Below are positions 3,549-31,435 of a DNA stretch of 64,000 nt, piece by piece. The notes beneath the pieces are model-generated. The model saw only the letters and a list, made by a program, of their open reading frames with translations, had not been told where the DNA came from and searched no databases. Position numbers and translations under genes: made by a program. The DNA comes from Cyanobacteria bacterium P01_C01_bin.120 (GTDB lineage Bacteria; Cyanobacteriota; Cyanobacteriia; Phormidesmidales; Phormidesmidaceae), in the NCBI GenBank assembly GCA_039027715.1, contig JBCCJU010000004.1:80-64079 (forward strand), written 5' to 3'. Every line of letters begins with the position of its first letter. Within the stretch, counting starts at the first letter, position 1.

Positions 3549-5162
3549 ATGCCTGATTTCGGTGCCAAGGTGGGAGTCATCCCAGTTGAGACTGATATTG
3601 TTGCCGTTACCGTCTATCCCGAACAAGCGCGGGTGACTCGTCAGGGGCAGATAGAAGTACATCAGCCGGAGGTCATTTTGGACATTGGGCCACTGCCCTC
3701 AACTTTGGCACCGCCGAGTGTGCAAGCCTATGCCCAGGGCACCGCCCGGGTATTGTTGCAAAGGCCAACGCTGGCGCCGGTGCCGCAGGCGGCTGAGTGG
3801 CAACGACAAGAAGAAGCCTTAGGCGATCGCCTGCGCCAGACCGAAGATCAGTTTCGTCGCTGTAAAGACAACCTGGCGGGGCTGAATCAACAGCAGGCTT
3901 TTCTCCAGTCCCTTTCCGACCGCATGGCCCATACCTTTGCGGAAGGGCTAGCCCAGCAGTCAATGGATTTGGCCCACGTAACGGCGTTTACAGACTTTTT
4001 TGAGCAGGCCCATCGGCGCCACAGTGAAGCGATCGCGGCTCAGGAACGGCAAAAGCAGGAACTTGACCAACAGCTGCAAGAAGCCCGCCAAGCTCTACAA
4101 CAGTTTCAGACCACCGGAAAGACGCCCAAATATCGCATTTTGCTTCCCGTCACCATAGAGCGATCGGGTGTTTTAGAGCTCAGTATTGTTTATGACGTCA
4201 TCAATGCCCAGTGGCAACCGGCCTATGACGTACGGTTGCAGGCCGATCACCATGGCTTGCAGATCGACTGCATTGCGGAAGTCCAGCAAAATACGGGAGA
4301 AAATTGGCATCAGGTCGATCTCAAAGTCTCGACGGCGGTCCCTGAAAAGACGCCCGCGATTCCAGATTCCAGCCTGCTAAACATTCAATCCGCTTTACAA
4401 CCGAAGCAAACCACTAACTCCACTACGAATAGCCCTCGCAAAGTCAAATCGCGTAGTCCGGTGCTAGACGAAACTTATCGCATGTTAGGAGCGCTGCCCG
4501 GCAGTGAAATTCCTGCCCAGGAGGAAGATAGCTGGGACGATGCGATGCTGCAGCCAGCCAACGCCATTATTTGTTTTGTCGCCACCCAGCCGGCGCAGGT
4601 GCCCAGTGACGGAGAAGTGCATCGAGTGCCCGTGGGACAACTGCAGTTGGATAGTCGCCTTGCCTATGTGGCGCTGCCGCAGCGCTGCAGTTCGGCCTAT
4701 CTGTGCGCAGCGCTCACCAATCCCCCAGAAAAATGGCCCTTGCTGCCGGGGACGGCCTATCTATTTCGGGATGGTGGCTATGTTGGGGCGGAAAAGTTTG
4801 ACTACGTGGCCCCAGGGGCGTCGTTTCAGCTGAGTCTGGGGTTGGACGAGCGGGTGCCGATTCAGCGGGAGTTGGTGACCCAAAAGACGGTTTCTGAAGA
4901 TGGCAGAGATTTACGGTCCTATCGGCTGACGATTCACAATCCATTCGACCAGGCAATTGACGTGACAGTGATTGAGCAAATTCCCACGGGGCGGGCGGGC
5001 GAAATTGAAGTGCAGATTATTAGCGCCAAGCCCGAGATAGATCTGCATCCAGAAGCTCAGTGTCAATGGGTCATGCAACTGGCGCCACAAGCGTCACAAC
5101 ATATTTTCTATCAGTATGAAATTCGGCATTCACCCAGCGATCGCTACGGCCCGCGATCGTAA
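3549..5162 (+). CDS. DUF4140/DUF4139 protein (MuiA-like)
   Basis: N-terminal IVAVTVYPEQARVTR, then a coiled coil, WQPAYDVRL, and C-terminal LLPGTAYLFRDGGYVG...LSLGLDERV. An alternative GTG start is at 3465. Confidence 0.85.
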   Translation: MPDFGAKVGVIPVETDIVAVTVYPEQARVTRQGQIEVHQPEVILDIGPLPSTLAPPSVQAYAQGTARVLLQRPTLAPVPQAAEWQRQEEALGDRLRQTEDQFRRCKDNLAGLNQQQAFLQSLSDRMAHTFAEGLAQQSMDLAHVTAFTDFFEQAHRRHSEAIAAQERQKQELDQQLQEARQALQQFQTTGKTPKYRILLPVTIERSGVLELSIVYDVINAQWQPAYDVRLQADHHGLQIDCIAEVQQNTGENWHQVDLKVSTAVPEKTPAIPDSSLLNIQSALQPKQTTNSTTNSPRKVKSRSPVLDETYRMLGALPGSEIPAQEEDSWDDAMLQPANAIICFVATQPAQVPSDGEVHRVPVGQLQLDSRLAYVALPQRCSSAYLCAALTNPPEKWPLLPGTAYLFRDGGYVGAEKFDYVAPGASFQLSLGLDERVPIQRELVTQKTVSEDGRDLRSYRLTIHNPFDQAIDVTVIEQIPTGRAGEIEVQIISAKPEIDLHPEAQCQWVMQLAPQASQHIFYQYEIRHSPSDRYGPRS

Positions 5163-5244: not shown

Positions 5245-6408
5245 TCAATTTGGCGAGGCGGCGGTTTCTAATGCCTGTGCCAAAGTGTTAGAGACCACCG
5301 CGTCATCCCAGTTATCGGGCTGTTCGCCCATGCGCACAATCACCAGTTCATAGGACGGCATCACAAAGACTCGCTGCAGGCCCCGCCCATCCAGATGAAA
5401 AGCCTGGGGATCGAGATAGGCATCGGTGGCTGTGGTTTCAACATTGGGATAAGCGGCTGTGCGGGCTTTGACCCAAATATGTTTGCCAAACGTGGCTTCC
5501 AGAGAGGAAGGCTGCAGCATTTGGGCAATCCAGTCCGGGGCAATGACCGACTGATTTTGCCAGCGACCTTGATTCCGCAGCAGTTCGCCGACCCGAGCCC
5601 AGTCACGGGCAGTGGCAAATAAACAGCAGAAGGTTTTAGGAAAACCGCCGGAGCGATCCAGCCAGAGGCTAGCAGCTTGAGCACCGATAGGCTGCCAGAG
5701 TCGGGTAGCGAGATAGTCAGCGTAATTGATCCCGGTAGCTCGCTGAATCACGATCGCCAATACCTGACTATTGACGTTGTTGTAGTCAAACTCTTCGCCC
5801 GGCGGTCGCACGCTAGGAATGCTGAGAGCCGTTTTCTCTACGTTGGAGCCGATGTAGAGATGCACTAAATCGGAAGCGGGGCTGGTGGTGCTGCGCTCGT
5901 TACGGAGTCCTGACTGCATGTACAGCAAATCCCGCAGGGTGATGCGAGCGCGTTCGCCACGTTGCCATTCCGGTAGATAATTGGCGGCGGGTTCTTCCAA
6001 AGAGGCGATCGCTCCTTCAGCGATCGCCTGCCCTATCAGCAGTCCCACGATGGTTTTCGACATCGACATCGCATTGAACTGAGACGTGCGATCGTAGCCT
6101 TGCCAGTATTCTTCCAGAGCGATCGTGCCTTTATGCATCACAATCAGCCCAGTCGAATGGCGCTCTGCCGCATAGTCAGCGACTGTGGCTAGGGCTGCCG
6201 CAAATTTTGCATTGGTGGGTGCCGCAACTGGGAGCTCTGGGGCAGGCTGACCCGTTACCTCTACTCTGGGTCGATACCAATTCACCGCCATAATGGGCTG
6301 CTCGGGGTACGTTGCTGCCCGACTAATAAATCGCCAGTCGGGCAGAATTATGGCCGCGACGAGAACCCCAGTGAGAATAATTAGACGGCGGCGTTTTGGC
6401 AAGGACAT
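5245..6408 (-). CDS. Serine hydrolase, class C beta-lactamase family, with N-terminal membrane anchor or signal
   Basis: SxxK motif (SMSK), FDYNNVNS, ATARDWARVG. Confidence 0.88.
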   Translation of the reverse strand: MSLPKRRRLIILTGVLVAAIILPDWRFISRAATYPEQPIMAVNWYRPRVEVTGQPAPELPVAAPTNAKFAAALATVADYAAERHSTGLIVMHKGTIALEEYWQGYDRTSQFNAMSMSKTIVGLLIGQAIAEGAIASLEEPAANYLPEWQRGERARITLRDLLYMQSGLRNERSTTSPASDLVHLYIGSNVEKTALSIPSVRPPGEEFDYNNVNSQVLAIVIQRATGINYADYLATRLWQPIGAQAASLWLDRSGGFPKTFCCLFATARDWARVGELLRNQGRWQNQSVIAPDWIAQMLQPSSLEATFGKHIWVKARTAAYPNVETTATDAYLDPQAFHLDGRGLQRVFVMPSYELVIVRMGEQPDNWDDAVVSNTLAQALETAASPN

Positions 6409-6493
6409 TGGGGGTGGAGGGATGATGGGGGGAGGAGCGAATGGCCGTTCGCTTGTACAGGTGGTGGAGTGAGAAATAAGTTTGAGTTTTTGC

Positions 6494-6528
6494 AGTTCTC
6501 AGTTTTGAGTTTTGAGTTTTAAGTTCTT
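6494..6528. repeat. Heptamer short tandem repeat (STRR-like)
   Basis: Five in-phase units AGTTCTC AGTTTTG AGTTTTG AGTTTTA AGTTCTT in an intergenic region. 7-nt tandem repeats are typical of filamentous cyanobacteria. Confidence 0.7.
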
Positions 6529-6828
6529 ATACCCGTTGTCTTTTCTAACGCTGCAGAGGTTAAGACTACAGGCATGGGGATGAAAACGGTTTCGCATCCA
6601 CAATTAAAAATCTGAAATCGAGAATGGGTATTGACCAAAGGGCTCGCCGGCTGAGTTTGCCGGCACTGGCGACGGCGACACACTTACTTTACCGAGTTAC
6701 CAATTTTCTGGATGAAAAGCCAGTAGCCAGAACCTCTTTTCTTGGCCGCGTGCTGATTTTCTTTTTAGCGATTTAAAGGTTGTCGCCATACACTGAATGA
6801 AGGAAACTGCCTGCTTTGTGCAAAAACG

Positions 6829-8034
6829 ATGACTCATCTTTCTTCCTCCCAAGCTCAGAGCTGGATTGCGCTTTGGTGGCGGTCTTTAGGGCCGTTTGCG
6901 CGGACGCTGGTGCTGTTGCTGGCGGCGCCGCTGGCGGTGCTAAATGTGTGGGCGTTGGCGCAAATCTTTGACTATTTTCGCGAAATTTTAGTAGCGGTGA
7001 TTGTGGCCTCGCTGTTAGCCTTTTTGCTGGGGTATCCAGTGCAGTGGCTGCGGCAGTTGGGCATTCGCCAGGGATTGGCTTCCATACTGGTCCTGTTAAG
7101 TGCGTTTTTGCTCTTGCTGACGGTGGGCATTACGATTTTGCCGCTGGTCATTGAGCAGGCTCAACAGTTAGTGAATAGGCTGCCAGATTGGTTTGACTCT
7201 GGCAAAGGGCAGCTGCTAGTGCTCGACAATCAGTTAGAAATTTGGGGGCTGCCTTTTAATCTGGATGGCGTTATCAGTCAGATTAACGATCGCCTAAAGT
7301 CACAATTTGAAGCGATCGCCGGTGAGGCCCTTAACCTGACATTGGGCTTAGCGGTATTCACAGTTAATAAACTGCTGGATGTCGTGCTGGCAATTGTGCT
7401 GTCCTTTTATCTATTGCAGCATGGCGACGAGGTTTGGGACGGCGTTATTGGTAGACTGCCCAACAAGATTCAGCAGCTATTTTCAGAAACGCTGCGGCTC
7501 AGCTTTCGCAATTACTTTTTGGGGCAGTTTGCCATCGCATCTTTGATGGGCATAGCACTGACAATCATTTACGTGCTCATGCAGGTGCCGTTTGGGCTAT
7601 TGTTCGGGATTACCATTGGCGTCGCCGCCCTGATTCCCTTTGGCGGCACCGTCAGTATTGTCGTTGTAACGCTGCTAGTTGGGCTGCAGGACATTAGCAT
7701 TGCCGTCAAAGTCCTGCTGGTGTCAGCGCTGGTGCAGCAGCTAATCGAAAATGTCTTGGCGCCTCGAGTGCTGGGCAGCTTTACGGGTCTCAATCCTTTT
7801 TGGGTGTTTATTGCCTTGCTGTCGGGAGCGCGGGTGGGAGGACTGCTGGGAGTGATTGTCGCCGTCCCTATTGCGGTGGTAATCAAAGAAGCCCTAGTCG
7901 CCATTCTGCAGGTCCAACAGCCCGCCGACAGTGCTGATAAATCGTCATCCGATGCCGCGATCGCGAACGGTAATAATGCCTCCAGTGGCCTGACTGAGGC
8001 CGAGGTGCCGGCGGCGTCAGCGGTCAAGGATTAG
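6829..8034 (+). CDS. AI-2E family transporter (PerM/UPF0118)
   Basis: Multi-TM protein with ALIPFGG and QQLIENVLAPRVLG...GGLLGVIVAVP. Confidence 0.92.
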   Translation: MTHLSSSQAQSWIALWWRSLGPFARTLVLLLAAPLAVLNVWALAQIFDYFREILVAVIVASLLAFLLGYPVQWLRQLGIRQGLASILVLLSAFLLLLTVGITILPLVIEQAQQLVNRLPDWFDSGKGQLLVLDNQLEIWGLPFNLDGVISQINDRLKSQFEAIAGEALNLTLGLAVFTVNKLLDVVLAIVLSFYLLQHGDEVWDGVIGRLPNKIQQLFSETLRLSFRNYFLGQFAIASLMGIALTIIYVLMQVPFGLLFGITIGVAALIPFGGTVSIVVVTLLVGLQDISIAVKVLLVSALVQQLIENVLAPRVLGSFTGLNPFWVFIALLSGARVGGLLGVIVAVPIAVVIKEALVAILQVQQPADSADKSSSDAAIANGNNASSGLTEAEVPAASAVKD

Positions 8035-13958: not shown

Positions 13959-16900
13959 ATGTCAGCCGAGTCAGAACAGCGATCGCAGCGATTTGAACAA
14001 TTATCGGCATTCCCGCAGCCACAGTTTGAGCAGCTACTGTCTGCGCTGAATGTGCCTGCTGGCATCATTAGTGGCCCATCTGCGCCGCAGGGTACGCGCG
14101 TCGGTGATTTGCTGAATTGGGCAGAGGGAGGAACTGGCTGTGGATTGGAAGAGTTAGAAGCCGCCTACGATCAGGTGAAAAACGCTAATTTAATTGATTT
14201 TGCGCCGTATTTGCAATCAATTCTGGAAGACGAAGATTATCGCGAATGGCATGAGGTCTACACTCCCACGACAGTAGAAGGGCGCACGCCGTTATCTCAA
14301 CCCAAGTTTTCGCGGCTGTTAAAGCTGCAAGTGGAAACGGTGACGCAGCAGAAAGAGGAGCCGAAGCCAAAGGCAGAACAGAAAGATGAGCAGAAGCCAG
14401 AAGCAGAACGAGAAGACGAACAGAACCAGGAAAGCGCGCGCGAAAAAGTTGCGCAGTGGGATGCGCTAGCTGGATTGCGCAAATATGCCGCTGAACACAT
14501 GCTGTTAATCGGCAAGCCAGGGTCAGGCAAATCGACATCATTGGAGCGACTGCTGTGGGAAGAAGCCCAAAACGCCCTGCAAGACTCCGAAGCGAAAATT
14601 CCGGTACTAATAAAGCTGCGACGCTGTACGTCTACGATTGAGCATCTGATTCAAGACTTCTTAAGTCGCCATCAGTTACCGTTAGCGATTGCTGAGATTG
14701 AGCACTTGCTTCAACAGGGCAAGCTGTTGCTATTGTTGGATGGCCTAAACGAACTGCCGGAAATTTTTGTCACAGCGGCAAGGAACTTCCGAGATCGTTA
14801 CCACAAGACCACGCCGATGATCGTCTCCACTCGCGACTTGGCTGTGGGCGGCACTCTGGGTATCGACAAAGCTTTGAAGATGCTGCCTCTAACCGAAGCC
14901 CAAATGCAGGAGTTTGTACGAGGCTATTTGGGAGAAGCGGGCGATCGCTTGTTTCAGCAGCTCAGGGGCGATCGCCTGCGAAAGTTTGCCGAAACGCCTT
15001 TACTGCTCTGGATGCTCTGCCGCGTCTTTGCCCAAAACGGCCAGGTGCCCGACAACTTGGGATTAGCCTTTCGCGAATTCACCCAACTCTACGACGCAAA
15101 AATTCAGGAAGATGCACCCACCGAGTCACGAGAGCAATGGCCCAAGTTATTGCGTCATCTGGCATTTGCTCTGATGCACGGCGAGGAGTTGGTTGATTTT
15201 CGGCTGTCTATGCCACGGGAAGACGCCACGGATTTGTTGACAGCTTGCTTTCAACAAGAAGATAGAGCCAATGCCCGTGACTGTGCCGAACGCTGGCTGC
15301 AAGACCTGCTGGATTATCACTTGCTACAGCCTGTGAGACAGGCCAATTTTGCAGAGCATATCGAATTTCGCCACCAACTGATTCAGGAATATTACGCGGC
15401 GGAAGCGTTACAGCGACGCTTGCCTGACTTGCTTAAAGACGAGAACACATTCAAGCGCGACTATCTCAACCTATTGAAGTGGACAGAACCCATTGCTCTG
15501 ATGCTGGCGCTGGTTAATGAGGAAGAGCAGGCGCTGCGGGTGGTGAGGCTGGCGATCAATGTAGACGTAGTATTGGCTAGTCGTTTAACAAGCGAGATAG
15601 GCAGTAGGTTTCAGGAGAGAGCATTTGACTGGATTGTCAGTCTTGAATATTCAGCCAAGATTAGAATTTACTTGTTGATGTGGACTTTAGAAGTATCTGA
15701 TAATAAGTGTGCTTATTCTGCTCTATCAACTTTAGCCTGTAAACTATTTAAAGATTCAGTATCGAGAAATTCTCGATTTTCAGTAGAGGCACTTTTGTTC
15801 TCCGTTCAATTCTCTGGAAGGTCTTCATCTGAAATCGAGCTGATACTTGAAGCCTCCTGCGATCAGTCTGCTGATGTACGAGAAAGAGCCATTTACGGCT
15901 TAATAGAATTGATCGATCGCCACCAAAAAAAAATAACTGAACGAGAAATAGATGGTTGTATCGATAGATTATTAGAGGCAATTGAAAACGAAGATCTGCA
16001 AATACAAAGAAAAATCCTAAGAAGCCTAAATGTTTTCCGTACTGATACCTTAAGCGAGTTTATAGAAAAGATAGAAGCTAGAAACTTCTGTTTGTTTTGC
16101 CTAAAGGCCCTTGAGAAGTCAGATAAGGTTTCACTGGTAAAAAAATTAGTGTCTGGATCAAATAATATATTTGATCAGGTTTCCGAAGAAACCTGGTTGT
16201 TAGGATTGAAAGTCTTCGCCTCTAGTTCATCCGGCTTTCCACTTGAAAAATACTTCAACTTGTTCAACTTTAGCTTTGATGATGTTCTTTCTGGATTTGA
16301 TCGTATTTTTGAAATAGTTTTAGTTGTTGAATCCTTTAAATGCCTTAAGAAACTAAAAATCAGAAGCGCTACAAAGATGATAATGGTAGTATGTGAAGCT
16401 CTGAATAAAAAAACTCCTGATGAGTATTGGCTAGAATTTAGAAGGATAATCGATGATACTTTCTCTCCTGTTCATAAGAAAATAGAGGAAATTCTTGAGA
16501 ATGAAGAAGAATCGCATGGACTGCCTGAATTATCTAAAGTTTTAGAGGATTACCTTGTCGATTTCTTTTTGGATAGCTTAAACAGTCTACACTCTGAAGT
16601 GAGGGGCGAGGCAACAAAAGGTTTAGGGTTGATATTGCATGATTCCGTTATTTCTAATATTAAAGATGCCTTCTATGATTCAGACGACTTTGTTTGCGTC
16701 ATGGCTGTACAAACCCTTAGTAAAATTGGCAGTGAGCTAGCAATTCAAGAACTTACTAAAGCTCTAAATCATGAAAACCCTTATATACGTAGATATGCAG
16801 CCTATGAGCTAGGAGAAAAAGATAGTAGTGACTTAACGATTAAGCTCTTAAAAGCTTTGGAACCATATTACAGTATGGGAAACTTTGTATCGGTATCAAT

Positions 16901-17744
16901 ACCGGATCTTGATCCGGACTTCAGCGACCTAACTATTGAAAGAATTGTCCCTAGCATTTTGCGGGCGTGTAAGCATGGAGATCCAACGATTAGGCAGTTG
17001 GCTTTGAGAACATTGGAAGGCCTTGGCGGTGAGGGGCCAATCATCGAATTGATAAAAGCCATGGAGCATCCAAGTTATCAGATTTGTCAACTTGCCGAAT
17101 ATATTTTGAGTTTAGTAGGCGGAGATATTTTTCCAGCATTGCATCAGGCACTTAATCATCATTTTCCTGATGTGCGTAGTCATGCAGCTAAATTGATAGC
17201 AGCAAAATTCAGTAATCAAGCTGTCCCAGAATTACTTGACTTGCTTCATGATGTCGATGCTAAGGTTCGTTCTTCAGTCGTTAAAGCTCTTGGCGAAATT
17301 AAAGACAGCACAACTGTTTCAGAACTGCTATATATGCTTGGTGATTACGACTTTGAAGTATGTCGCTGTGCTATCGAAGCTCTCGGGAAGATTGGCAATG
17401 AGCGAGCTATTCCTGGCTTACTTTCTATACTTGAGGAACGTGATTATGACACTGTGGATGATTTAATCTACGCGCTTGAGCGTATCGGCGATGAGCGGGC
17501 TATTCCTGCACTGCTTAATCTACTTGAAGAAGATATTGATCCTGACACCTGCAGATCAATTGCACGAGCAATAGGGGAAATAGCAAATCCTTCGTTACTT
17601 ATAGATATTCGTGACTCATTCTTGGAGGGAGATAACACAGTCCAATTCGGTATGAGAGGTGAATTGGAGATCTTATGGTCGATTACAGAGCATCAAGAAG
17701 AATGTAAGTTTTACAACTACGAAATTTGGCAAGAAGCAATTTAA
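13959..17744 (+). CDS. NLR-like protein: N-terminal effector-associated domain (EAD9-like) + NACHT NTPase + HEAT repeats
   Basis: Walker A IGKPGSGKST, Walker B LLLLLDGLNE, AETPLLLWMLC, and HEAT/PBS repeats (VRSSVVKALGEI, AIEALGKIGNERAIPGL). Confidence 0.92.
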   Translation: MSAESEQRSQRFEQLSAFPQPQFEQLLSALNVPAGIISGPSAPQGTRVGDLLNWAEGGTGCGLEELEAAYDQVKNANLIDFAPYLQSILEDEDYREWHEVYTPTTVEGRTPLSQPKFSRLLKLQVETVTQQKEEPKPKAEQKDEQKPEAEREDEQNQESAREKVAQWDALAGLRKYAAEHMLLIGKPGSGKSTSLERLLWEEAQNALQDSEAKIPVLIKLRRCTSTIEHLIQDFLSRHQLPLAIAEIEHLLQQGKLLLLLDGLNELPEIFVTAARNFRDRYHKTTPMIVSTRDLAVGGTLGIDKALKMLPLTEAQMQEFVRGYLGEAGDRLFQQLRGDRLRKFAETPLLLWMLCRVFAQNGQVPDNLGLAFREFTQLYDAKIQEDAPTESREQWPKLLRHLAFALMHGEELVDFRLSMPREDATDLLTACFQQEDRANARDCAERWLQDLLDYHLLQPVRQANFAEHIEFRHQLIQEYYAAEALQRRLPDLLKDENTFKRDYLNLLKWTEPIALMLALVNEEEQALRVVRLAINVDVVLASRLTSEIGSRFQERAFDWIVSLEYSAKIRIYLLMWTLEVSDNKCAYSALSTLACKLFKDSVSRNSRFSVEALLFSVQFSGRSSSEIELILEASCDQSADVRERAIYGLIELIDRHQKKITEREIDGCIDRLLEAIENEDLQIQRKILRSLNVFRTDTLSEFIEKIEARNFCLFCLKALEKSDKVSLVKKLVSGSNNIFDQVSEETWLLGLKVFASSSSGFPLEKYFNLFNFSFDDVLSGFDRIFEIVLVVESFKCLKKLKIRSATKMIMVVCEALNKKTPDEYWLEFRRIIDDTFSPVHKKIEEILENEEESHGLPELSKVLEDYLVDFFLDSLNSLHSEVRGEATKGLGLILHDSVISNIKDAFYDSDDFVCVMAVQTLSKIGSELAIQELTKALNHENPYIRRYAAYELGEKDSSDLTIKLLKALEPYYSMGNFVSVSIPDLDPDFSDLTIERIVPSILRACKHGDPTIRQLALRTLEGLGGEGPIIELIKAMEHPSYQICQLAEYILSLVGGDIFPALHQALNHHFPDVRSHAAKLIAAKFSNQAVPELLDLLHDVDAKVRSSVVKALGEIKDSTTVSELLYMLGDYDFEVCRCAIEALGKIGNERAIPGLLSILEERDYDTVDDLIYALERIGDERAIPALLNLLEEDIDPDTCRSIARAIGEIANPSLLIDIRDSFLEGDNTVQFGMRGELEILWSITEHQEECKFYNYEIWQEAI

Positions 17745-18432: not shown

Positions 18433-19794
18433 TCACGGCTTGCTGTTATCGTCGATCGCTTCAGCATCAGCTAGGCCCGCGTAGGTATAGCCAAGCTGAC
18501 GAAAATCTAAGACGTCTTGCGCGCGGACAATCTTGCTAGGGGCCGGGGCAATAAACAGGGCCGTCAGATTCGCGTCTTCAGGGCCGTAGCTGCCGGGCGA
18601 AGATAGCCCGCCATCCCAGGGCCACATTGGGTCCGATAAATTATGGCCAAAGGGCCGATCGCTGGCAGGATAAAAGCGATCACTGCTGTGCCCTTCGTCT
18701 TGCCACTGCGCCCAGAGCCGGTCCACATTGGCATGGTGGAGCCAGAAAATCGGATCGTAAGGCGAGCAGGGAATGCTATCCATCGTGCCTAAAATGTCGG
18801 TTTGGTGGGCAATGCCTTGAGTCCAATCCGTCCAGTCAACCTGACTGCCGCCGATAATCGAGTGGGCAAAGGCATGGAGTGCCCAGCCGGGAACATAGTC
18901 GGCGCGATCGCTGGTTTTATCCGGCACCAGCGCCCCTTCAAGCAGCGCATTGAATACCTCGTAGTTGTCAGTCTCAAAGAGGCTGGCGATTGCGCTTTGA
19001 GGTAAGGGATAGCGATCGAACGGTGGCAGCGTCGAAAATCTCAGCAGGTGAGGGCCGAGCGATTCTAGAGTCATTGCATCAAAGTGGAGCGTTTCGTTGA
19101 GCTGCCACGCGGCAAAGAGGCCCGTTTTCACCTCGCCGCCTTCAAAGCGACCGTGCTCAGGAACGTTCACAAAGGTGCCTTGCCCGGATGTGCCCAGGAA
19201 ATCTGCTTGCAGCATCACGTTCAGCGCCTCTGGATCGGTCCAGTCCCAGTAAGGCACGGTGACGCTTGCATCAACGGTCTGCAGCGCCTGCTCAAAATCG
19301 AGCAGAAACTGCCGATGCCAGGGTAAAAATGCCGGATAGCTGTGGGCCGGGTTGCCGCGAGCGGGCCCGGTAGCTCCCAGACGCTGTCGAAACCCCATGG
19401 TCAAAATGTGCTGCACCACAAACTGTTCATAGAGGCTGAGCTGCGAGCCTTCAGGGTAGGTTGATTGCAGAGCGTTGACGGCATTGACAAAAGCGGACTT
19501 CTCCGCTGGGGTAAGTGTGGTTACACTTTTGCGGATTTGGCGAGCCTGGGTCGGTGAAAGATTGGGAAAAACCAGCTCTGGCCCTGGAGCATCCGGTGGC
19601 GGCGGATAGTAAACGCTGGAGTTATCGCGCAGTTGAGAAAGGGCAATGATAGCGATCGCCACCAGCAAAATTACGCCGGCAAAAACCCGCAGTGTCAGCC
19701 TCTTGGAAAATGGAAATGTAGAACTCAGTTTTTGGAGCACAGTTAAAGTAGCTTCTCCACAAGACTTTTTACCGCCACTGTCTAGATGGCGCAA
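18433..19794 (-). CDS. Tyrosinase family (type-3 dicopper) protein with N-terminal membrane anchor
   Basis: CuA site AHSYPAFLPWHR, PYWDW, and CuB site HAFAH...DPIFWLHHANVDRLW. The start position is uncertain. Confidence 0.92.
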   Translation of the reverse strand: MRHLDSGGKKSCGEATLTVLQKLSSTFPFSKRLTLRVFAGVILLVAIAIIALSQLRDNSSVYYPPPPDAPGPELVFPNLSPTQARQIRKSVTTLTPAEKSAFVNAVNALQSTYPEGSQLSLYEQFVVQHILTMGFRQRLGATGPARGNPAHSYPAFLPWHRQFLLDFEQALQTVDASVTVPYWDWTDPEALNVMLQADFLGTSGQGTFVNVPEHGRFEGGEVKTGLFAAWQLNETLHFDAMTLESLGPHLLRFSTLPPFDRYPLPQSAIASLFETDNYEVFNALLEGALVPDKTSDRADYVPGWALHAFAHSIIGGSQVDWTDWTQGIAHQTDILGTMDSIPCSPYDPIFWLHHANVDRLWAQWQDEGHSSDRFYPASDRPFGHNLSDPMWPWDGGLSSPGSYGPEDANLTALFIAPAPSKIVRAQDVLDFRQLGYTYAGLADAEAIDDNSKP

Positions 19795-27686: not shown

Positions 27687-27941
27687 GAATTGGCCAACGT
27701 ACAGGTTATTCCGGACGCTGGAACCGAAGAACAGACTTGCGCTGAACGAAACAGTTAGCCCAAAGTTAGAAGCGGAATTTAGGGTTATCTGGGAAAATCG
27801 AAGAATGATGTAAATATTTAGTCATCTAGGCCAATCCCCTTAGCCCTCTTCGGAGGCTTAACTGTTTGCCAGATGGCTTGCCGGCTTAGCCTAACGGGCC
27901 TAGCGACGGCTTGGATTTTCAGCGACCAGTGTCATCAATTT

Positions 27942-28883
27942 ATGTCGGATTCCTCATCCAAAGTTTCAATTTACGCAGCCCTGCTGGCGAATGTGGCGAT
28001 CGCGATCGCTAAATTTGTGGGGGCGGGCATCAGCGGCAGCTCGGCCATGCTCTCAGAGGGCATTCACTCCGTGGTCGATTCCGTTAACGAAATTCTGCTG
28101 CTGTATGGTCTGAAACAAAGCGAAAAAGGCCCTGATGACCTGCATCCCCTAGGGCACGGACAGGAACTGTATTTTTGGTCGCTGGTTGTGGCCGTACTGA
28201 TTTTTTCTCTAGGCGGTGGCTTTTCAATTTATGAAGGCGTACAGGGCTTTCAAGCCGCTGAACCCTCTGCCAGTCCCGTGGTCAGCTACAGCGTGTTGGG
28301 CACAGCCGCCATTTTTGAAGCCGCAGCGCTAACGGTATCCATCCGCGAATTTAAGCATCAAAATCCGAATCGGCAGGGCAATCTCTGGACTGCAATGAAG
28401 CGCAGCAAAGATCCCAGTAGTTTTATTGTGATTTTTGAAGACGCGGCGGCGCTGTTGGGTCTGGGAGTGGCGTTTGGGGGCGTCTATCTCAGCCAAGTCA
28501 CTCAGAATACTACGTATGACGCTATTGCCTCCATCGTTATCGGTGTGATTTTGACGGTGGTGGCGATCGTTCTAGTTTCCGAAACCAAAGGGCTCTTAAT
28601 TGGCGAGAGTGCTTTGCCGGAAACTCAAGAAAGTCTGAAAGCGATTATCAAAGCGGATCAAGCGGTTGTCGGCATGGGCTCGCTGATTACCCTACATCTA
28701 GCTCCCAAAGATGTGATGTTAGCGCTCAATATTGAATTTGCCGACGATCTCTCTGCTGATGACATCGAAGCTGCCGTCTGTCGCATTGAAACTAGCATTC
28801 GCGATTCCCATGAAGAAGTGAAGCGAATTTTTATTGAAGCGGCTTCCATGCGGCTCACAGCCCAGAGCGCGGCAAAAGAATAG
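27942..28883 (+). CDS. Cation diffusion facilitator (CDF) metal exporter
   Basis: SAMLSEGIHSVVD, HPLGHGQELYFW, FEDAAALLG, and a C-terminal dimerisation domain. Start moved to 27942. Confidence 0.93.
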   Translation: MSDSSSKVSIYAALLANVAIAIAKFVGAGISGSSAMLSEGIHSVVDSVNEILLLYGLKQSEKGPDDLHPLGHGQELYFWSLVVAVLIFSLGGGFSIYEGVQGFQAAEPSASPVVSYSVLGTAAIFEAAALTVSIREFKHQNPNRQGNLWTAMKRSKDPSSFIVIFEDAAALLGLGVAFGGVYLSQVTQNTTYDAIASIVIGVILTVVAIVLVSETKGLLIGESALPETQESLKAIIKADQAVVGMGSLITLHLAPKDVMLALNIEFADDLSADDIEAAVCRIETSIRDSHEEVKRIFIEAASMRLTAQSAAKE

Positions 28884-28962: not shown

Positions 28963-30237
28963 TTAGCCGACCAGAGAAAGGGTGACGACCCAGAAGCCGA
29001 CTAAAAAGCCAGCAATGGTTGAGTAGGTGACAGTCCCGCCGCCGAGTTCGTAGGCTTCGGGCATCATGGTGCTCGAAAGCATGGCCAGAATGGCGCCGCC
29101 GGCCAGCGCTTGGGCAGAGCCCAGTACCCAGCCACTGGCAACCGTGCTGAGGAAGTTGCCGAGCATGGCCGTTAAGCCACACAGCAGCACAGCGCCCGCC
29201 CATAAGGTGAGAATGCGGCGAGCGGCGGTGCCAGCCTGCTGCATGCCGACGGAACTAGACAGCGCCTCTGGAATATTGGAAATAAAGACCGCCATCAAAA
29301 AAGAGCCGCTGATACTGCCGTTGCCCACGTTAAAGCCAATCACTAGGGCTTCGGGAATATTGTCCATTAGCGTGCCCACCAGGATGGCTAGCGGCGCCGA
29401 ACTTTTGGCGAGCTGCTGAATCTGCTGCTCAGATAGCGGAAAATCGACCTCGACACTATCGAGGACCTGCTGTCGCCATTGTCCTTCGGAGCGCTCACGA
29501 GCTTTAGCGGTGGATTGAGTGGTCTCGCGTAGTCGCCGCGCCAAAATGCGGCTGAGGCCGCTGGCCAGATGGGGTGATCGCGTCAACATCCCGTCAAAGT
29601 CTGACTTATCTAGCTCATAGAGCTTCATCGGGGTACGGGCAACCACACTGGCAGACCGTTCTTCGCCAGTGAGCAGCGCCATTTCACCAAACATCTCACC
29701 GGCCCCAAGCTGCGCCATTAGCTGTGGTCCTTTATAAATATCGGCTTCACCCGCCAGGATAATGAACATGGCGTCTCCCGCTGAGCCTTCTTGACAGAGA
29801 GTAGTACCAGGTTCGACGGTTAGCGGCTTGAGGAGAGGAATCATCGCCTGCACCTCTGAAGGCGAGAGGTTATGAAGCATTTCGACGTGGGCGATTTCGT
29901 CCAGCACCTCTGAGGTTTCTTCTTGTCGGTGGTGATAGAAAAATCGCCGTGAGGAAGAAGGATGGCGAATGAAGCCACCGCGATCGTCAATATAGTTGAT
30001 GATTAGGGTGAATAAAGCGCCGCCAATGGTGAATCCCACCAGCAGGGGCCAAAAACCGGCTTGCTCATAAACCGGCTGCGTGATGTCGAAGGCGATCGCG
30101 GCTAGCAGAGTACCACTGCCGAAAGCCATAATAGCTGCCGTAACAACTCGGCCTGGCTTCCAGCAAATACCCAAAATAGCGCCGATCAGTAAACTAGAAG
30201 CTCCTAAGAACCCCTGTAGTAATGCGGATAAGGGCAT
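28963..30237 (-). CDS. ZIP-family metal transporter with an internal cyclic-nucleotide-binding domain
   Basis: ZIP N-terminus (IMAFGSGTLLAAIAFD), cNMP domain (GEMFGEMALLTGEERSASV), then ZIP TM4/TM5 (DNIPE, SNIPE) and AGGAILAMLSSTMMPEAY. Confidence 0.9.
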   Translation of the reverse strand: MPLSALLQGFLGASSLLIGAILGICWKPGRVVTAAIMAFGSGTLLAAIAFDITQPVYEQAGFWPLLVGFTIGGALFTLIINYIDDRGGFIRHPSSSRRFFYHHRQEETSEVLDEIAHVEMLHNLSPSEVQAMIPLLKPLTVEPGTTLCQEGSAGDAMFIILAGEADIYKGPQLMAQLGAGEMFGEMALLTGEERSASVVARTPMKLYELDKSDFDGMLTRSPHLASGLSRILARRLRETTQSTAKARERSEGQWRQQVLDSVEVDFPLSEQQIQQLAKSSAPLAILVGTLMDNIPEALVIGFNVGNGSISGSFLMAVFISNIPEALSSSVGMQQAGTAARRILTLWAGAVLLCGLTAMLGNFLSTVASGWVLGSAQALAGGAILAMLSSTMMPEAYELGGGTVTYSTIAGFLVGFWVVTLSLVG

Positions 30238-30304: not shown

Positions 30305-30772
30305 CTAAGGCGCCAGCGGCGAGTCACGGCTAGCAATGGGCAGTGCTGCACTGCGCCAACCGCGCATATCTCCTTCAAGGGTCAAAACTTGCTGAAAACC
30401 AGCCTGCTCTAACGTTCTTTCGGCAATGGCCGCTCGCACGCCAAGCTCGCAGTACACGACAACTTTTGCCTGATTGAAGGCAGCCAACTCAGCCAAACGG
30501 TCAGGAATTTCTCGATGGGGAAAATTGACGGCACCGGGAATATGACCAGCCGCATACTCTGCTGGCGATCGCACATCTAATACCAGCGGTGCTCCATCCG
30601 TCTCCAGCGCTGCCATTAGCGCCTGAGGAGCAATCGACTCGGGCGCGGACCAGCCCATTTGGCCAAGCCACAATAGCGTCACTGCGATCGCGCCAATCAG
30701 CGGTATCCACAGACGAGGTTTTTTCCCAAAGGCGCGAAGCGTTTGCGAACGTAATGGCATCACCATGGGCAC
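30305..30772 (-). CDS. Rhodanese-like domain protein with N-terminal anchor
   Basis: LDVRSPAEYAAGHIPGA, VYCELGVRA, LEGDMRGW. Confidence 0.9.
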   Translation of the reverse strand: MPMVMPLRSQTLRAFGKKPRLWIPLIGAIAVTLLWLGQMGWSAPESIAPQALMAALETDGAPLVLDVRSPAEYAAGHIPGAVNFPHREIPDRLAELAAFNQAKVVVYCELGVRAAIAERTLEQAGFQQVLTLEGDMRGWRSAALPIASRDSPLAP

Positions 30773-30877: not shown

Positions 30878-31435
30878 ATGACTTCTTCTCCGCGTCGCCG
30901 CCGTCGCCGACCGTCGCTATGGCGGCGCTTTCGCCAGCGCCCCAGCAGCCCCGATCGCCTGCCGTGGGCATGGGTCGTAATTACGGCCCTGCTTTATCTA
31001 TCCATGGGGCTGCTACTGGCCGCTTTTCCAGTGCCCTATTGGATTTGGAATTTGGCATTGGTGGGCATTGCGGCCCAAGCGCTGGCCTTAGCAGGACCAC
31101 GAGCCCTAAGCCGCCGCCCTTGGCTAGCGGCAAATCTGTTGGCGCTGTTAGCAATCATCGGTACTGTCCTGCTAGCGATCGCCTTGGGTATTTCGTTGGG
31201 CTTTGTCGGCACCGCTCAGCTCGATGAAGTTGCCATGAGCGGCACCACCTTTGAGGTGATCAGGATTGGTCTACTGGCCATTTTGGTGCCAGCAATTGGT
31301 GCGGTCATCGGCGCAGAAACCGGCGATCGTCTCCTCTATCGATTGAACCGCTGGCAAACGACGCTGGTGCTGGCAGCAACCTGCTGCGCCGGGATTGGCC
31401 TCGGTGGCGCCTTTGGCCTATTGATTGCCGGATAA
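30878..31435 (+). CDS. Hypothetical membrane protein
   Basis: Arg-rich N-terminus followed by 4-5 hydrophobic helices. Confidence 0.75.
   Translation: MTSSPRRRRRRPSLWRRFRQRPSSPDRLPWAWVVITALLYLSMGLLLAAFPVPYWIWNLALVGIAAQALALAGPRALSRRPWLAANLLALLAIIGTVLLAIALGISLGFVGTAQLDEVAMSGTTFEVIRIGLLAILVPAIGAVIGAETGDRLLYRLNRWQTTLVLAATCCAGIGLGGAFGLLIAG

Follow-up and report, generated by a model that had tools for sequence, protein, structure and literature searches.

ZIP transporters are central to keeping zinc, iron and manganese in balance, from bacteria to humans. Their post-translational regulation is poorly understood, and the known regulatory loops, located between transmembrane helices TM3 and TM4, are disordered and hard to study. 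Two proteins of this type are used as a reference in this work, BbZIP (the ZIPB protein of Bordetella bronchiseptica) and ZupT of Escherichia coli, both of them GufA-type prokaryotic ZIPs.

In BbZIP, helices TM2, TM3, TM7 and TM8 are described as a static scaffold, while TM1, TM4, TM5 and TM6 form a sliding transport domain; the part which moves most during the transport cycle is the cytoplasmic end of TM4 (PMC9278863, PMC9873690). The TM3–TM4 loop, also called IL2, has been associated with regulation in several cases. Histidine clusters in this loop are reported to slow transport in BbZIP and ZIP4 (PMC13192868), and the variable region of IRT1 is described as a regulatory platform (PMC10152663). 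Here we analyze a cyanobacterial gene in which this loop is occupied by a cyclic-nucleotide-binding (CNB) domain.

Gene and Membrane Layout

The window we have analyzed is a stretch of 64,000 nt from contig JBCCJU010000004.1 of Cyanobacteria bacterium P01_C01_bin.120. The gene is found on its minus strand, at 28963..30237, as an open reading frame coding for 424 amino acids. The Pfam matches and the homologs of this protein point to a transporter of the ZIP fold whose TM3–TM4 loop contains a CNB domain, and we will call it the ZIP-CNB protein. Its first three TM helices are separated from the last five by an insert of about 170 residues. Hydropathy places TM1–TM3 at residues ~4–24, 30–50 and 62–82, with a soluble stretch after them, and TM4–TM8 at residues ~281–301, 310–330, 340–360, 366–388 and 405–424. 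The same 3 + 5 layout is found in the helices of the AF2 model and in the two-piece profile match described below. An earlier note on this DNA had listed three TMs, a CNB domain and five TMs, which agrees with both the reading frame and the hydropathy. The TM1–2, TM3–4 and TM5–6 loops are rich in Lys and Arg, a pattern which, as read from the sequence, fits a topology with the N-terminus outside. From this positive-inside pattern and the topology of BbZIP, the TM3–TM4 loop is predicted to be cytoplasmic.

The first membrane piece, TM1–TM3 (residues 1–85; 29983..30237, minus strand), includes the helices equivalent to the scaffold helices TM2 and TM3. The sequence MAFGSGTL in TM2 is invariant, and position D51, which in our residue mapping corresponds to the BbZIP entry residue S106, is always acidic. 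The second piece, TM4–TM8 (residues 281–424; 28966..29397, minus strand), contains the metal-site helices.

Homologs which match the ZIP-CNB protein over its full length show 51–97% identity. There are hundreds of them, with invariant motif residues: the feature is well beyond chance. The public sequencing runs in which the sequence is present are all marine-metagenome DNA, and none of them is an RNA run.

Homology with ZIP Transporters

The direct match to the Pfam Zip family (PF02535) is weak, 25.6 bits against a gathering score of 35.1, and it only spans TM4–TM8. An intermediate profile is therefore needed, and ZIP homology was established by means of one made from 32 compact relatives which have no CNB domain. 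The Pfam Zip family is matched at E ≤ 0.01 by 28 of these 32 relatives, with a best E-value of 3e-13. Their profile matches the BbZIP structures 5tsa, 8j1m, 7z6m, 8ght and 6pgi over all eight TMs, with E-values from 6e-19 to 1e-17.

The ZIP-CNB protein aligns to this profile in two pieces, with a summed score of 237 bits. Residues 4–102 correspond to profile positions 3–96 (70.8 bits) and residues 274–419 to positions 96–242 (167 bits). Both pieces meet at position 96, so the insert is located exactly at the TM3/TM4 junction. In all complete CNB-carrying representatives (56 of 56) the CNB domain is found between both ZIP halves.

These alignments place the protein among the ZIP-fold transporters, as a relative of BbZIP and ZupT. 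The earlier note had read it as a ZIP transporter whose cytoplasmic TM3–TM4 loop carries a complete CNB domain, and the two-piece match to a profile linked with BbZIP gives the same picture. The nearest curated model is ZupT, for which the equivalog scores are 24–53 bits, compared with a cut-off of 252. The assignment of the membrane domain to the ZIP fold rests on sequence profiles: The Foldseek matches listed for the full-length model are CNB domains, and the AF2 model of a loop-deleted construct, made without an alignment, has a pLDDT of 45, which is too low for use. Residues were mapped to BbZIP with hmmalign, aligning the protein to the compact profile with the insert taken out; when the full-length protein was used, only its C-terminal half was placed.

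The Inserted Domain and Its Linkers

The CNB domain covers residues 119–238 (29524..29883, minus strand) and includes N-terminal helices, a beta-roll, the phosphate-binding cassette and helices alphaB and alphaC. Residues 140–220 match Pfam PF00027 (cNMP_binding) with 72.6 bits, compared with a cut-off of 27.5. Sequence matches in the PDB include PKG, PKA-R and MloK1, with E-values from 1e-29 to 1e-16. Foldseek finds the CNB domains of HCN2, MloK1, PKA and SthK with probability 1.0 and target-normalised TM-scores of 0.6–0.83; the HCN2, MloK1 and PKA matches are ligand-bound structures. The AF2 model of the domain has a pLDDT of ~79–89 over residues 131–210, and shows seven or eight strands followed by helices.

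The phosphate-binding cassette, FGEMALLTGEERSASV, is found in the translation at 29644..29691 (minus strand). No variation is seen at G184, E185, R194, S195 or A196 among 37 sequences, which are the window protein and 36 homologs down to 60% identity. Gly184-Glu185 and Arg194-Ser-Ala are the cassette residues which contact the cyclic nucleotide in PKA, PKG and MloK1. Among 31 single-CNB representatives of diverse origin, 24 have the canonical G-E..R cassette as well. A Ser after the cassette Arg (RSAS) is likewise present in MloK1 and HCN, and it does not tell cAMP from cGMP. The earlier note had placed a CNB domain with an intact cassette at about 29530–29910, very close to the limits we find, and the strings it quoted are present. 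Judging from its sequence, the domain is a canonical CNB domain with an intact cassette, and it would be expected to bind cAMP or cGMP.

Some database names suggest other kinds of protein, which we have discarded. Several sources give homologs the name "CRP-like cAMP-binding protein", that of a CRP/FNR-type regulator. There is no HTH, and CRP aligns over the CNB domain only (35 bits, compared with a cut-off of 266). Some sources call homologs protein kinases; no Pkinase match is found, and the similarity with PKA-R and PKG is confined to the CNB domains. A channel of the CNG/HCN/MloK1 type was rejected as well: The protein has no ion-channel Pfam domain and its membrane part is ZIP-like.

The linkers at both sides of the domain are as conserved as the core (0.82 and 0.78, compared with 0.76–0.83). 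The first one is formed by the segment after TM3 and a linker helix (residues 86–118; 29884..29982, minus strand), with the pattern GGFIRH..SSRR....RQ..S..L. It has a mean conservation of 0.82, with 10 of its 33 positions invariant, and AF2 predicts a helix at residues 93–115. The C-terminal linker (residues 239–280; 29398..29523, minus strand) was delimited by its conservation and by the AF2 secondary structure. Residues 239–250 are variable, then comes a conserved helix (251–263), in which W254, R255, L259, S261 and E263 are invariant, and finally a cytoplasmic extension of TM4. The "His-containing stretch" pointed out in the earlier note, RHPSSSRRFFYHHRQ, corresponds to residues 91–105, inside the segment after TM3. 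The sequence is indeed there, but its His residues are not conserved as a group: 35 of 37 sequences have H92, while H102 and H103 are found in only 23–24 of 37. Since these two residues are variable, we have dropped the idea of a conserved His-rich metal-sensing loop.

The Metal Site

Three motifs can be mapped to BbZIP, all of them on the minus strand. DNIPE in TM4 (29350..29364) corresponds to H177-N178-L-P-E181, SNIPE in TM5 (29266..29280) corresponds to Q207-D208-V-P-E211, and STMMPEAYE at the cytoplasmic end of TM7 (29047..29073), which is invariant, corresponds to H275-E276-V-I-P-E-T-H. Residues D292, N293, P295 and E296 in TM4 are invariant, as are S320, N321, P323 and E324 in TM5. The Pro and Glu of both motifs are kept, while the canonical ZIP motifs H-N-x-P-E-G and [HQ]-[ND]-x-P-E-G are absent: their first positions are Asp292 and Ser320 and their final Gly is Ala or Ser, and these changes are fixed. 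DNIPE and SNIPE had already been singled out as departures from the usual HN-x-PE, and we find that they are both present and fixed.

The ligands His177 and Gln207 of BbZIP are replaced by Asp292 and Ser320, both fixed in the family. Among the M2 ligands (Asn178, Asp208 and Glu240), Asn178 is kept as Asn293, Asp208 is replaced by Asn321, and Glu240 by Cys353, which is Ser in 32 of 37 homologs. The release residues are also changed: Asp144 to Ile or Val, His275 to Ser and Glu276 to Thr. The binuclear metal centre is not found in this protein: neither the second metal site of BbZIP nor its cytoplasmic His/Glu release site seems to have been preserved. The fixed replacement of these ligands points to an oxygen-only, probably mononuclear site.

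The Asp/Ser replacement is also present in the compact relatives with no CNB domain. It is therefore a trait of the subfamily and is not tied to the CNB fusion. DNIPE/SNIPE would be the mark of a divergent, uncharacterised ZIP subfamily, with a central site predicted to contain Asp, Glu, Ser and Asn instead of the usual His-containing set. Possible non-zinc selectivity had been suggested for this protein. The suggestion is reasonable in view of the replacements of His177/Gln207 and Asp208/Glu240, but the signature is not specific to the fusion. Instead of classical Zn2+, the substrate is probably a harder cation (Mn2+, Fe2+, Mg2+ or Ca2+), and import would be expected by analogy with most ZIPs. 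With neither classical His ligands nor the release residues of BbZIP present, the substrate, and even metal transport itself, cannot be taken for granted.

Gene neighborhoods and riboswitch searches gave no pointer to the substrate. When scanned for Rfam families and tRNAs, the window and ten related loci showed no riboswitches and a single tRNA, in locus L090, and no recurrent partner gene was found around four compact relatives lacking the CNB domain.

Neighboring Genes

Next to the ZIP-CNB gene, on the plus strand, there is a CDF transporter gene (27873..28883), which matches Cation_efflux with 123 bits and TIGR01297 with 119 bits. The two genes are convergent, with their stop codons 79 bp apart, so the convergent CDF exporter gene reported in the earlier note is really there. 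Out of 80 related loci, no more than 2 show such adjacency, L001 and L007, which are both close relatives, and the conserved neighbors of ZIP-CNB loci include no CDF cluster.

On the other side, 67 bp from the transporter start and on the same strand, is a gene for a rhodanese-domain protein with a hydrophobic N-terminus (30305..30772, minus strand; Pfam Rhodanese, 79 bits). It lies next to the transporter gene in 13 of the 80 related loci. The gap between both genes has no terminator-like site, and they are possibly co-transcribed. Further upstream, a divergent gene (30878..31435, plus strand) codes for a multi-TM protein of 185 amino acids with no Pfam or NCBIfam match. This is the most conserved neighbor within the clade: 46 of the 49 closest loci have it upstream, on the opposite strand. 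Promoter and terminator scans around the ZIP-CNB gene yielded nothing informative.

Distribution

The ZIP-CNB architecture is widespread: species-representative genomes contain at least 560 matches. Other phyla have relatives of ~605–613 amino acids with two CNB domains in tandem, whose cassettes are not canonical: the cassette Glu and Arg are lost, and in CNB-B 129 of 146 sequences have His in place of the Arg, while the Glu is mostly replaced by Gly. Sensing cAMP or cGMP is therefore not a universal property of the loop module.

A homolog with 52% identity is found in Synechocystis salina (locus L079), beside recA, a Fur-family gene, a creatininase-like gene and purH. We take this to be the same neighborhood as the slr0593–slr0597 / sll0567–sll0569 region, and on this basis slr0593 is probably the ortholog of the ZIP-CNB gene. 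In Synechocystis sp. PCC 6803, slr0593 is labeled "cAMP binding membrane protein" and is transiently down-regulated on iron deprivation, with log2 values of about −1.3 at 3–12 h (PMC3516471). This annotation misses the ZIP fold, and our literature search found no functional study of slr0593; as for the ZIP-CNB fusion, it found no description other than this CyanoBase-style label.

Discussion

The insert joins TM3, which belongs to the scaffold, to TM4, which is mobile, so the sensor would be tethered across a moving interface. Since conserved linkers tie the insert to both helices, gating by cyclic nucleotides is a well-founded hypothesis. In the mechanism we consider most likely, cAMP or cGMP would bind to the sensor and rearrange its cassette, hinge and alphaC lid. 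The rearranged sensor would then alter the length or geometry of the linkers, and these would restrain or release the elevator movement, placing cation flux under second-messenger control. We infer both ligand binding and its coupling to transport, the sign of which might be either activation or inhibition. We would give a probability of about 0.55 to the reading of this protein as a divergent ZIP-fold cation transporter gated by cAMP or cGMP through its loop sensor. A wider proposal is that ligand-gated ZIP-type elevators of this kind are a large class which has gone unrecognised, in which a cAMP/cGMP sensor placed between scaffold and transport domain directly switches the flux of hard cations (Mn2+, Fe2+, Mg2+ or Ca2+, not classical Zn2+) via an oxygen-only mononuclear site. 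This is a tentative suggestion, which we consider possible but somewhat doubtful.

The loop domain might be regulatory and respond to something else: another nucleotide or a nucleoside, or no ligand at all, acting by dimerisation or as an autoinhibitory plug. The tandem-CNB relatives, which keep the module once the canonical contacts with the cyclic nucleotide (cassette Glu and Arg) are gone, are in favor of this, and there is a precedent in CNB domains described as binding nucleosides instead of cAMP (PMC10959531). Nevertheless, we find it unlikely for the window protein, given that Gly-Glu...Arg-Ser-Ala is invariant in it and its 36 homologs and is kept in most single-CNB representatives, and that the nearest matches in both sequence and fold are true binders of cyclic nucleotides. 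A reading which we consider rather improbable is an ordinary ZupT-like zinc importer, in which the change to Asp and Ser has no effect on selectivity. In databases, "ZIP family zinc transporter" and "ZIP family metal transporter" are the names given to the compact relatives, ZupT is the nearest curated model, and both Glu ligands and both Pro are kept in the TM4 and TM5 motifs. On the other hand, these names are automatic and not experimental, the ZupT scores are well below the cut-off, and the replacements of His177, Gln207, Asp208, Glu240 (by Ser or Cys), His275 and Glu276 are all fixed.

Two further readings have very little probability in our opinion. The earlier note had seen an import/export pair in the ZIP-CNB and CDF genes, which are adjacent and convergent and belong to divalent-cation transporter superfamilies. 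The rarity of this arrangement in related loci and the missing CDF among the conserved neighbors go against it, and convergent genes share no promoter: A functional pair is most improbable. It is just as hard to believe that the membrane domain no longer transports, and only anchors a receptor for cyclic nucleotides or signals to partners. Several functional residues of BbZIP have been lost (the M2 site and the release site), and the divergent partner gene with no family match is strongly conserved, as such a role might suggest. Yet the four positions equivalent to M1, both Pro-Glu motifs and the TM7 sequence MMPEAYE are invariant, and the compact relatives without CNB domain have these same residues, a pattern which is expected of a working substrate site.

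If gating by cAMP or cGMP is confirmed, a ZIP with a folded sensor for a well-understood ligand in its loop would be a switchable elevator, whose defined states might be trapped with and without cAMP. Most of what is known about cAMP/cGMP signaling in cyanobacteria comes from CRP-type regulators, and the ZIP-CNB protein would provide this signaling with a direct, non-transcriptional output. In the wider proposal, cyanobacteria and, by means of altered sensors, other phyla would have a post-translational route from second messengers to cation homeostasis. A function would also be available for a gene which hundreds of species have, with slr0593 as its probable representative in the model strain Synechocystis 6803. 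The Asp/Ser site, in turn, marks a whole ZIP subfamily whose members are currently annotated as zinc transporters.

Comparison with Known Systems

The ZIP-CNB protein shares with BbZIP and ZupT the eight TMs in a 3 + 5 arrangement, the x-N-x-P-E motifs on TM4 and TM5, a Pro-Glu on TM7 and a TM3–TM4 loop which is predicted to be cytoplasmic. Its elevator architecture is presumed from homology to BbZIP. The main difference is the folded CNB insert of about 170 residues, found where BbZIP and ZupT have a short loop. The loops of ZIP4, BbZIP and IRT1 occupy the same regulatory position, but they are largely disordered and act as His-rich metal sensors or modification sites, whereas the loop of the ZIP-CNB protein is a folded domain, predicted to sense a small molecule, and has no conserved His cluster.

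The combination of a membrane cation pathway and a canonical CNB domain is also found in MloK1, SthK, HCN and CNG channels. The CNB domain of the ZIP-CNB protein is about 30–34% identical to those of MloK1 and HCN2, and the folds match. Nevertheless, these channels are tetrameric, with 6-TM pores and a C-terminal CNB domain attached by a C-linker, while in our case the domain is internal, in the loop of a putative carrier. Other transporters with a CNB-type module are the sperm Na+/H+ exchanger SLC9C1 and CNNM/CorC, which has a CNB-homology domain. Bacterial MFS-CNBD fusions are noted in a review which mentions no ZIP fusion (PMC10710835). In all of them the domain is terminal and the fold is not that of a ZIP; in the ZIP-CNB protein, the domain is found between two TM helices.

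Gene structure and ZIP homology

The ZIP-CNB gene is a 424 amino acid ORF on the minus strand (28963..30237). A hydropathy scan places hydrophobic segments at about residues 4–24, 30–50 and 62–82, followed by a soluble region of about 200 residues and by five more segments within residues 281–424. By translation, the phosphate-binding cassette (FGEMALLTGEERSASV) lies at 29644–29691, the DNIPE motif at 29350–29364 and the SNIPE motif at 29266–29280, all on the minus strand. The ORF, the three plus five TM layout and the strings quoted in the earlier note are thus all found as described.

The protein matches the Pfam cNMP_binding family with 72.6 bits (cut-off 27.5). The Pfam Zip match is weak, 25.6 bits (cut-off 35.1), and spans TM4–8 only; when the whole protein is searched against PDB sequences, only CNB domains match. 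Because of these two results, the TM4–8 half alone was used as query against 1.84 billion cluster representatives. At E<=0.001 this half has 1806 relatives, which fall into length classes of about 245, 420–450 and 605–613 amino acids. A compact-ZIP profile (A2), made of 32 CNB-free members, matches the structures of the Bordetella bronchiseptica ZIP, BbZIP (5tsa, 8j1m, 7z6m, 8ght and 6pgi), at E 6e-19 to 1e-17. Profile positions 4–241 align with BbZIP residues 59–305, including all eight TMs. The window protein matches the same profile with 237 bits in two pieces, residues 4–102 with positions 3–96 and residues 274–419 with positions 96–242. Since this profile links both proteins, the membrane domain is, judged by sequence, a true ZIP homolog, interrupted precisely where TM3 meets TM4 by an insert of about 170 residues.

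The TM3–TM4 loop of ZIPs is known as IL2. The claim that a ZIP carries a CNB domain inserted in this loop agrees with the two-piece match and the BbZIP homology, and we regard the ZIP-CNB architecture of this gene as practically certain. The TM1–2, TM3–4 and TM5–6 loops are rich in Lys/Arg and fit the established ZIP topology, with the N-terminus outside, so the sensor domain would be cytoplasmic.

Metal site

BbZIP residues were mapped to the window protein via the profile, and their conservation was followed among 37 homologs. At metal site M1, His177, Glu181, Gln207 and Glu211 of BbZIP correspond to Asp292, Glu296, Ser320 and Glu324, and Met99, which takes part in some states, to Leu44; all five are invariant. 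At M2, Asn178 and Asp208 correspond to Asn293 and Asn321, also invariant, and Glu240 to Cys353, a position with Ser in 32 of the 37 homologs. Along the release path, Asp144 becomes Ile80 (variable), and His275 and Glu276 become Ser389 and Thr390 (both invariant). At the entry, Ser106 is replaced by Asp51, which is Asp or Glu in all 37. An S-T-M-M-P-E-A-Y-E segment at the cytoplasmic end of TM7 is also fixed in the family. The site looks oxygen-only and is probably mononuclear, and a preference for a harder, non-zinc cation is a fair inference from this ligand chemistry.

The earlier note had described the DNIPE and SNIPE motifs and suggested a possibly non-zinc selectivity. This is plausible on chemical grounds, but these motifs are not specific to the fusion: The signature LD[GN]IPE, SN[LF]PE, TMMPEAY is also found in the compact, CNB-free relatives, so it is a trait of the whole ZIP subfamily. 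NCBIfam has no model for this subfamily, whose members match the ZupT equivalog alone, with 24–53 bits against a cut-off of 252. Database names for the compact relatives are generic, "ZIP family metal/zinc transporter".

Distribution and evolution

With one genome scanned per species, at least 560 stretches encode relatives. The window itself stems from an organism of a marine metagenome that is close to Leptolyngbya/Halomicronema. In the best 80 of these, 409–424 of the 424 query residues are matched with 51–97% identity, and nearly all are cyanobacterial, including Leptolyngbya, Nodosilinea, Halomicronema, Moorena, Crocosphaera, Coleofasciculus and Synechocystis salina. One of them, L060, is a full-length homolog (57% identity) on a 74.6-kb contig of a MAG named Candidatus Gracilibacteria bacterium SU_1_2 (CPR). 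Since the rest of these best 80 are cyanobacterial or have no assignment ("uncultured bacterium"), the contig is probably mis-binned and cyanobacterial.

Of the 99 complete representatives closest to the TM4–8 domain, 43 are without a CNB domain, 30 carry a single one and 26 carry two. The proposed ZIP plus cNMP architecture is therefore carried by 56 of the 99, with the CNB between the two ZIP halves in 56/56 fusions. Single-CNB forms are also present in Deltaproteobacteria MAGs, and tandem forms in Gammaproteobacteria (Candidatus Thiodiazotropha, Thiocapsa), Desulfobacterales and Brocadiaceae. The TM cores were also placed in a neighbour-joining tree with BbZIP as root; the tree is without support values and was read by tip order only. 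In the ladderized tree, compact forms come first and CNB-bearing forms follow together, an order which suggests one ancient CNB insertion and a later duplication.

By our own count, a canonical G-E...R cassette is present in 24 of 31 single-CNB representatives. It is also found in both CNB domains of the tandem protein P0181 (576 amino acids). In the tandem clade of about 605–613 amino acids, the Glu of the first domain (CNB-A) is mostly Trp, Arg or His and its Arg is His, Thr or Tyr; in the second (CNB-B), the Arg is His in 129/146 sequences and the Glu mostly Gly. Tandem proteins with non-canonical cassettes include P0137, P0143 and P0285–P0402. The tandem proteins of about 610 amino acids probably sense something other than cAMP/cGMP, or nothing. 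The loop module is thus general in the subfamily; since cassettes are canonical in some forms and diverged in this clade, we predict classical cNMP sensing in only a part of it, which includes the window gene.

Some members of the deltaproteobacterial, single-CNB P0125 cluster, with up to 862 amino acids, carry permease annotations (APC-family or amino-acid). This suggests that ZIP-CNB was fused to a neighbouring amino-acid permease gene, or that gene calling merged the two.

Nothing in the literature searched in full text describes a ZIP-CNB fusion. A 2023 review on transporter regulation lists CNBD fusions for MFS transporters only (PMC10710835). The gene order in S. salina is ZIP-CNB, recA, an FtsX-like permease (our own sequence reading), a Fur-family gene, a creatininase-like gene and purH. 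From this order and the CyanoBase gene numbering, we take slr0593 to be the likely Synechocystis 6803 ortholog. An iron-deprivation transcriptome labels slr0593 a "cAMP binding membrane protein", which falls transiently by about 2.5-fold with an antisense RNA alongside (PMC3516471). Precomputed Pfam annotations contain the PF00027 + PF02535 architecture. As far as we have found, this architecture is undescribed and uncharacterised in the literature searched, though latent in databases.

Gene neighbourhood

A downstream CDF transporter gene (27873..28883, plus strand, supported by a family match) is convergent with ZIP-CNB, as the earlier note had reported; 79 bp separate the stop codons. The import/export pair proposed from this arrangement is not supported: CDF adjoins ZIP-CNB in only two of the best 80 of at least 560 loci (L001 and L007), and none of the recurrent neighbour clusters of related loci contains it. 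A rhodanese-domain gene (30305–30772, minus) lies 67 bp upstream of ZIP-CNB on the same strand, an arrangement found in 13 of the same 80 loci. Its protein has a hydrophobic N-terminal segment and a CELGVR active-site loop, and is probably exported or membrane-anchored. Eighteen more distant loci have an ATP sulfurylase (our own reading) upstream in its place, a loose sulfur theme.

The best-conserved neighbour is a 185 amino acid multi-TM protein (30878–31435, plus), divergent from the rhodanese/ZIP-CNB unit and without Pfam or NCBIfam match. Its N-terminus is rich in Arg, and it has about five TM helices. Of the 49 closest loci, 46 have a homolog upstream on the opposite strand, which is missing in more distant cyanobacteria, so the association may be mere clade-level synteny.

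Elsewhere the window is a normal chromosomal region, with genes for an acetyl-CoA synthetase, a TPR-repeat Ser/Thr kinase, a NACHT-HEAT protein, a tyrosinase, a GH9 cellulase, EF-G and a photolyase-related protein. The NACHT NTPase (1261 amino acids, C-terminal HEAT repeats, 13959–17744, plus) overlaps a low-GC stretch (0.40 at 16–18 kb, well below the window average of about 0.52), and is followed by the tyrosinase-domain gene (18433–19794, minus). The window ORFs that were scanned include no cyclase, and Rfam and tRNA scans of the window gave no matches.

Tandem-CNB genes lie at about 6001–7830 in loci L081–L085 and at 5056–6897 in L086. Phosphate-acquisition genes adjoin them in four of seven sampled lineages, a pattern noticed after the fact: L081/L082 (Ca. 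Thiodiazotropha), L083 (Brocadiaceae), L084/L085 (Thiocapsa) and L086 (Desulfobacterales). One context has a Na/Pi cotransporter and Endonuclease_1, another PhoX and PhoH, another pstC, pstA, pstB and two PstS-like genes, and another pstB and PstS, with PPK2 next to the tandem gene (42 bp upstream, same strand). Phosphate genes are absent from the three other sampled contexts, L087–L089. This hints at a link of the tandem branch to phosphate or polyphosphate physiology. An EAL/CBS/GGDEF protein of about 606–608 amino acids is encoded immediately upstream of the tandem gene in L081 (3577–5397, minus) and L083 (3461–5287, plus), accompanied by a small ORF of 94–127 amino acids. It is divergent in L081, a gammaproteobacterium, and co-directional in L083, an anammox planctomycete. 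It may be a conserved c-di-GMP-linked partner.

Sensor domain and possible mechanism

The CNB domain covers about residues 119–238. In the PDB search, its nearest sequences are CNB domains of PKG, PKA regulatory subunits and MloK1 (E 1e-29 to 1e-16). An AlphaFold2 model on 37 homologs has a mean pLDDT of 73, with 79–89 over most of the beta-roll, and the modelled domain matches ligand-bound HCN2, MloK1, PKA and SthK CNBDs with a Foldseek probability of 1.0. G184, E185, R194, S195 and A196 are invariant in the 37-sequence alignment, down to 60% identity. The Pfam score, the fold and these residues agree with a CNB domain with intact cassette, and competence for ligand binding is a sound prediction from sequence and model.

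The linkers which flank the sensor have conservation values of 0.82 (residues 86–118) and 0.78 (residues 251–263), against 0.76–0.83 in the transporter core; residues 239–250 are the sole variable part. Linkers as conserved as the core argue for a sensor coupled mechanically to the transporter, not one tethered passively. R97, R98, R104 and Q105 are invariant in the 37 homologs and H92 is kept in 35. On the other hand, H102 and H103 are kept in only 23–24, so the "His-containing stretch" of the earlier note does not form a conserved cluster of His.

Published BbZIP work describes a static scaffold (TM2/3/7/8) and a sliding transport domain (TM1/4/5/6), with the largest rearrangement in the cytoplasmic part of TM4 (PMC9278863). 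His clusters in IL2 make BbZIP and ZIP4 transport slower, according to another study (PMC13192868). In ZIP-CNB, the sensor N-terminus would be suspended from TM3, and its C-terminal alphaC helix and linker would run into TM4. Joined in this way, the sensor would be wired across the moving interface. Motion of cassette and lid driven by cNMP might then alter the tether between TM3 and TM4 and gate the elevator. As most ZIPs are importers, import is assumed here too.

As a whole, a cNMP-regulated cation transporter is slightly favoured, with a probability of about 0.55. What had been observed in the gene is confirmed, and its interpretation is partly supported. ZIP-CNB appears to be a ZIP transporter whose regulatory loop contains a folded sensor for a second messenger. 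Its RSAS context is like that of MloK1 and HCN, and does not discriminate between cAMP and cGMP. In CNB domains of the HCN2, MloK1, PKA and SthK type, the ribose and phosphate contacts correspond to the same five window residues, G184, E185, R194, S195 and A196, and all of them are retained.
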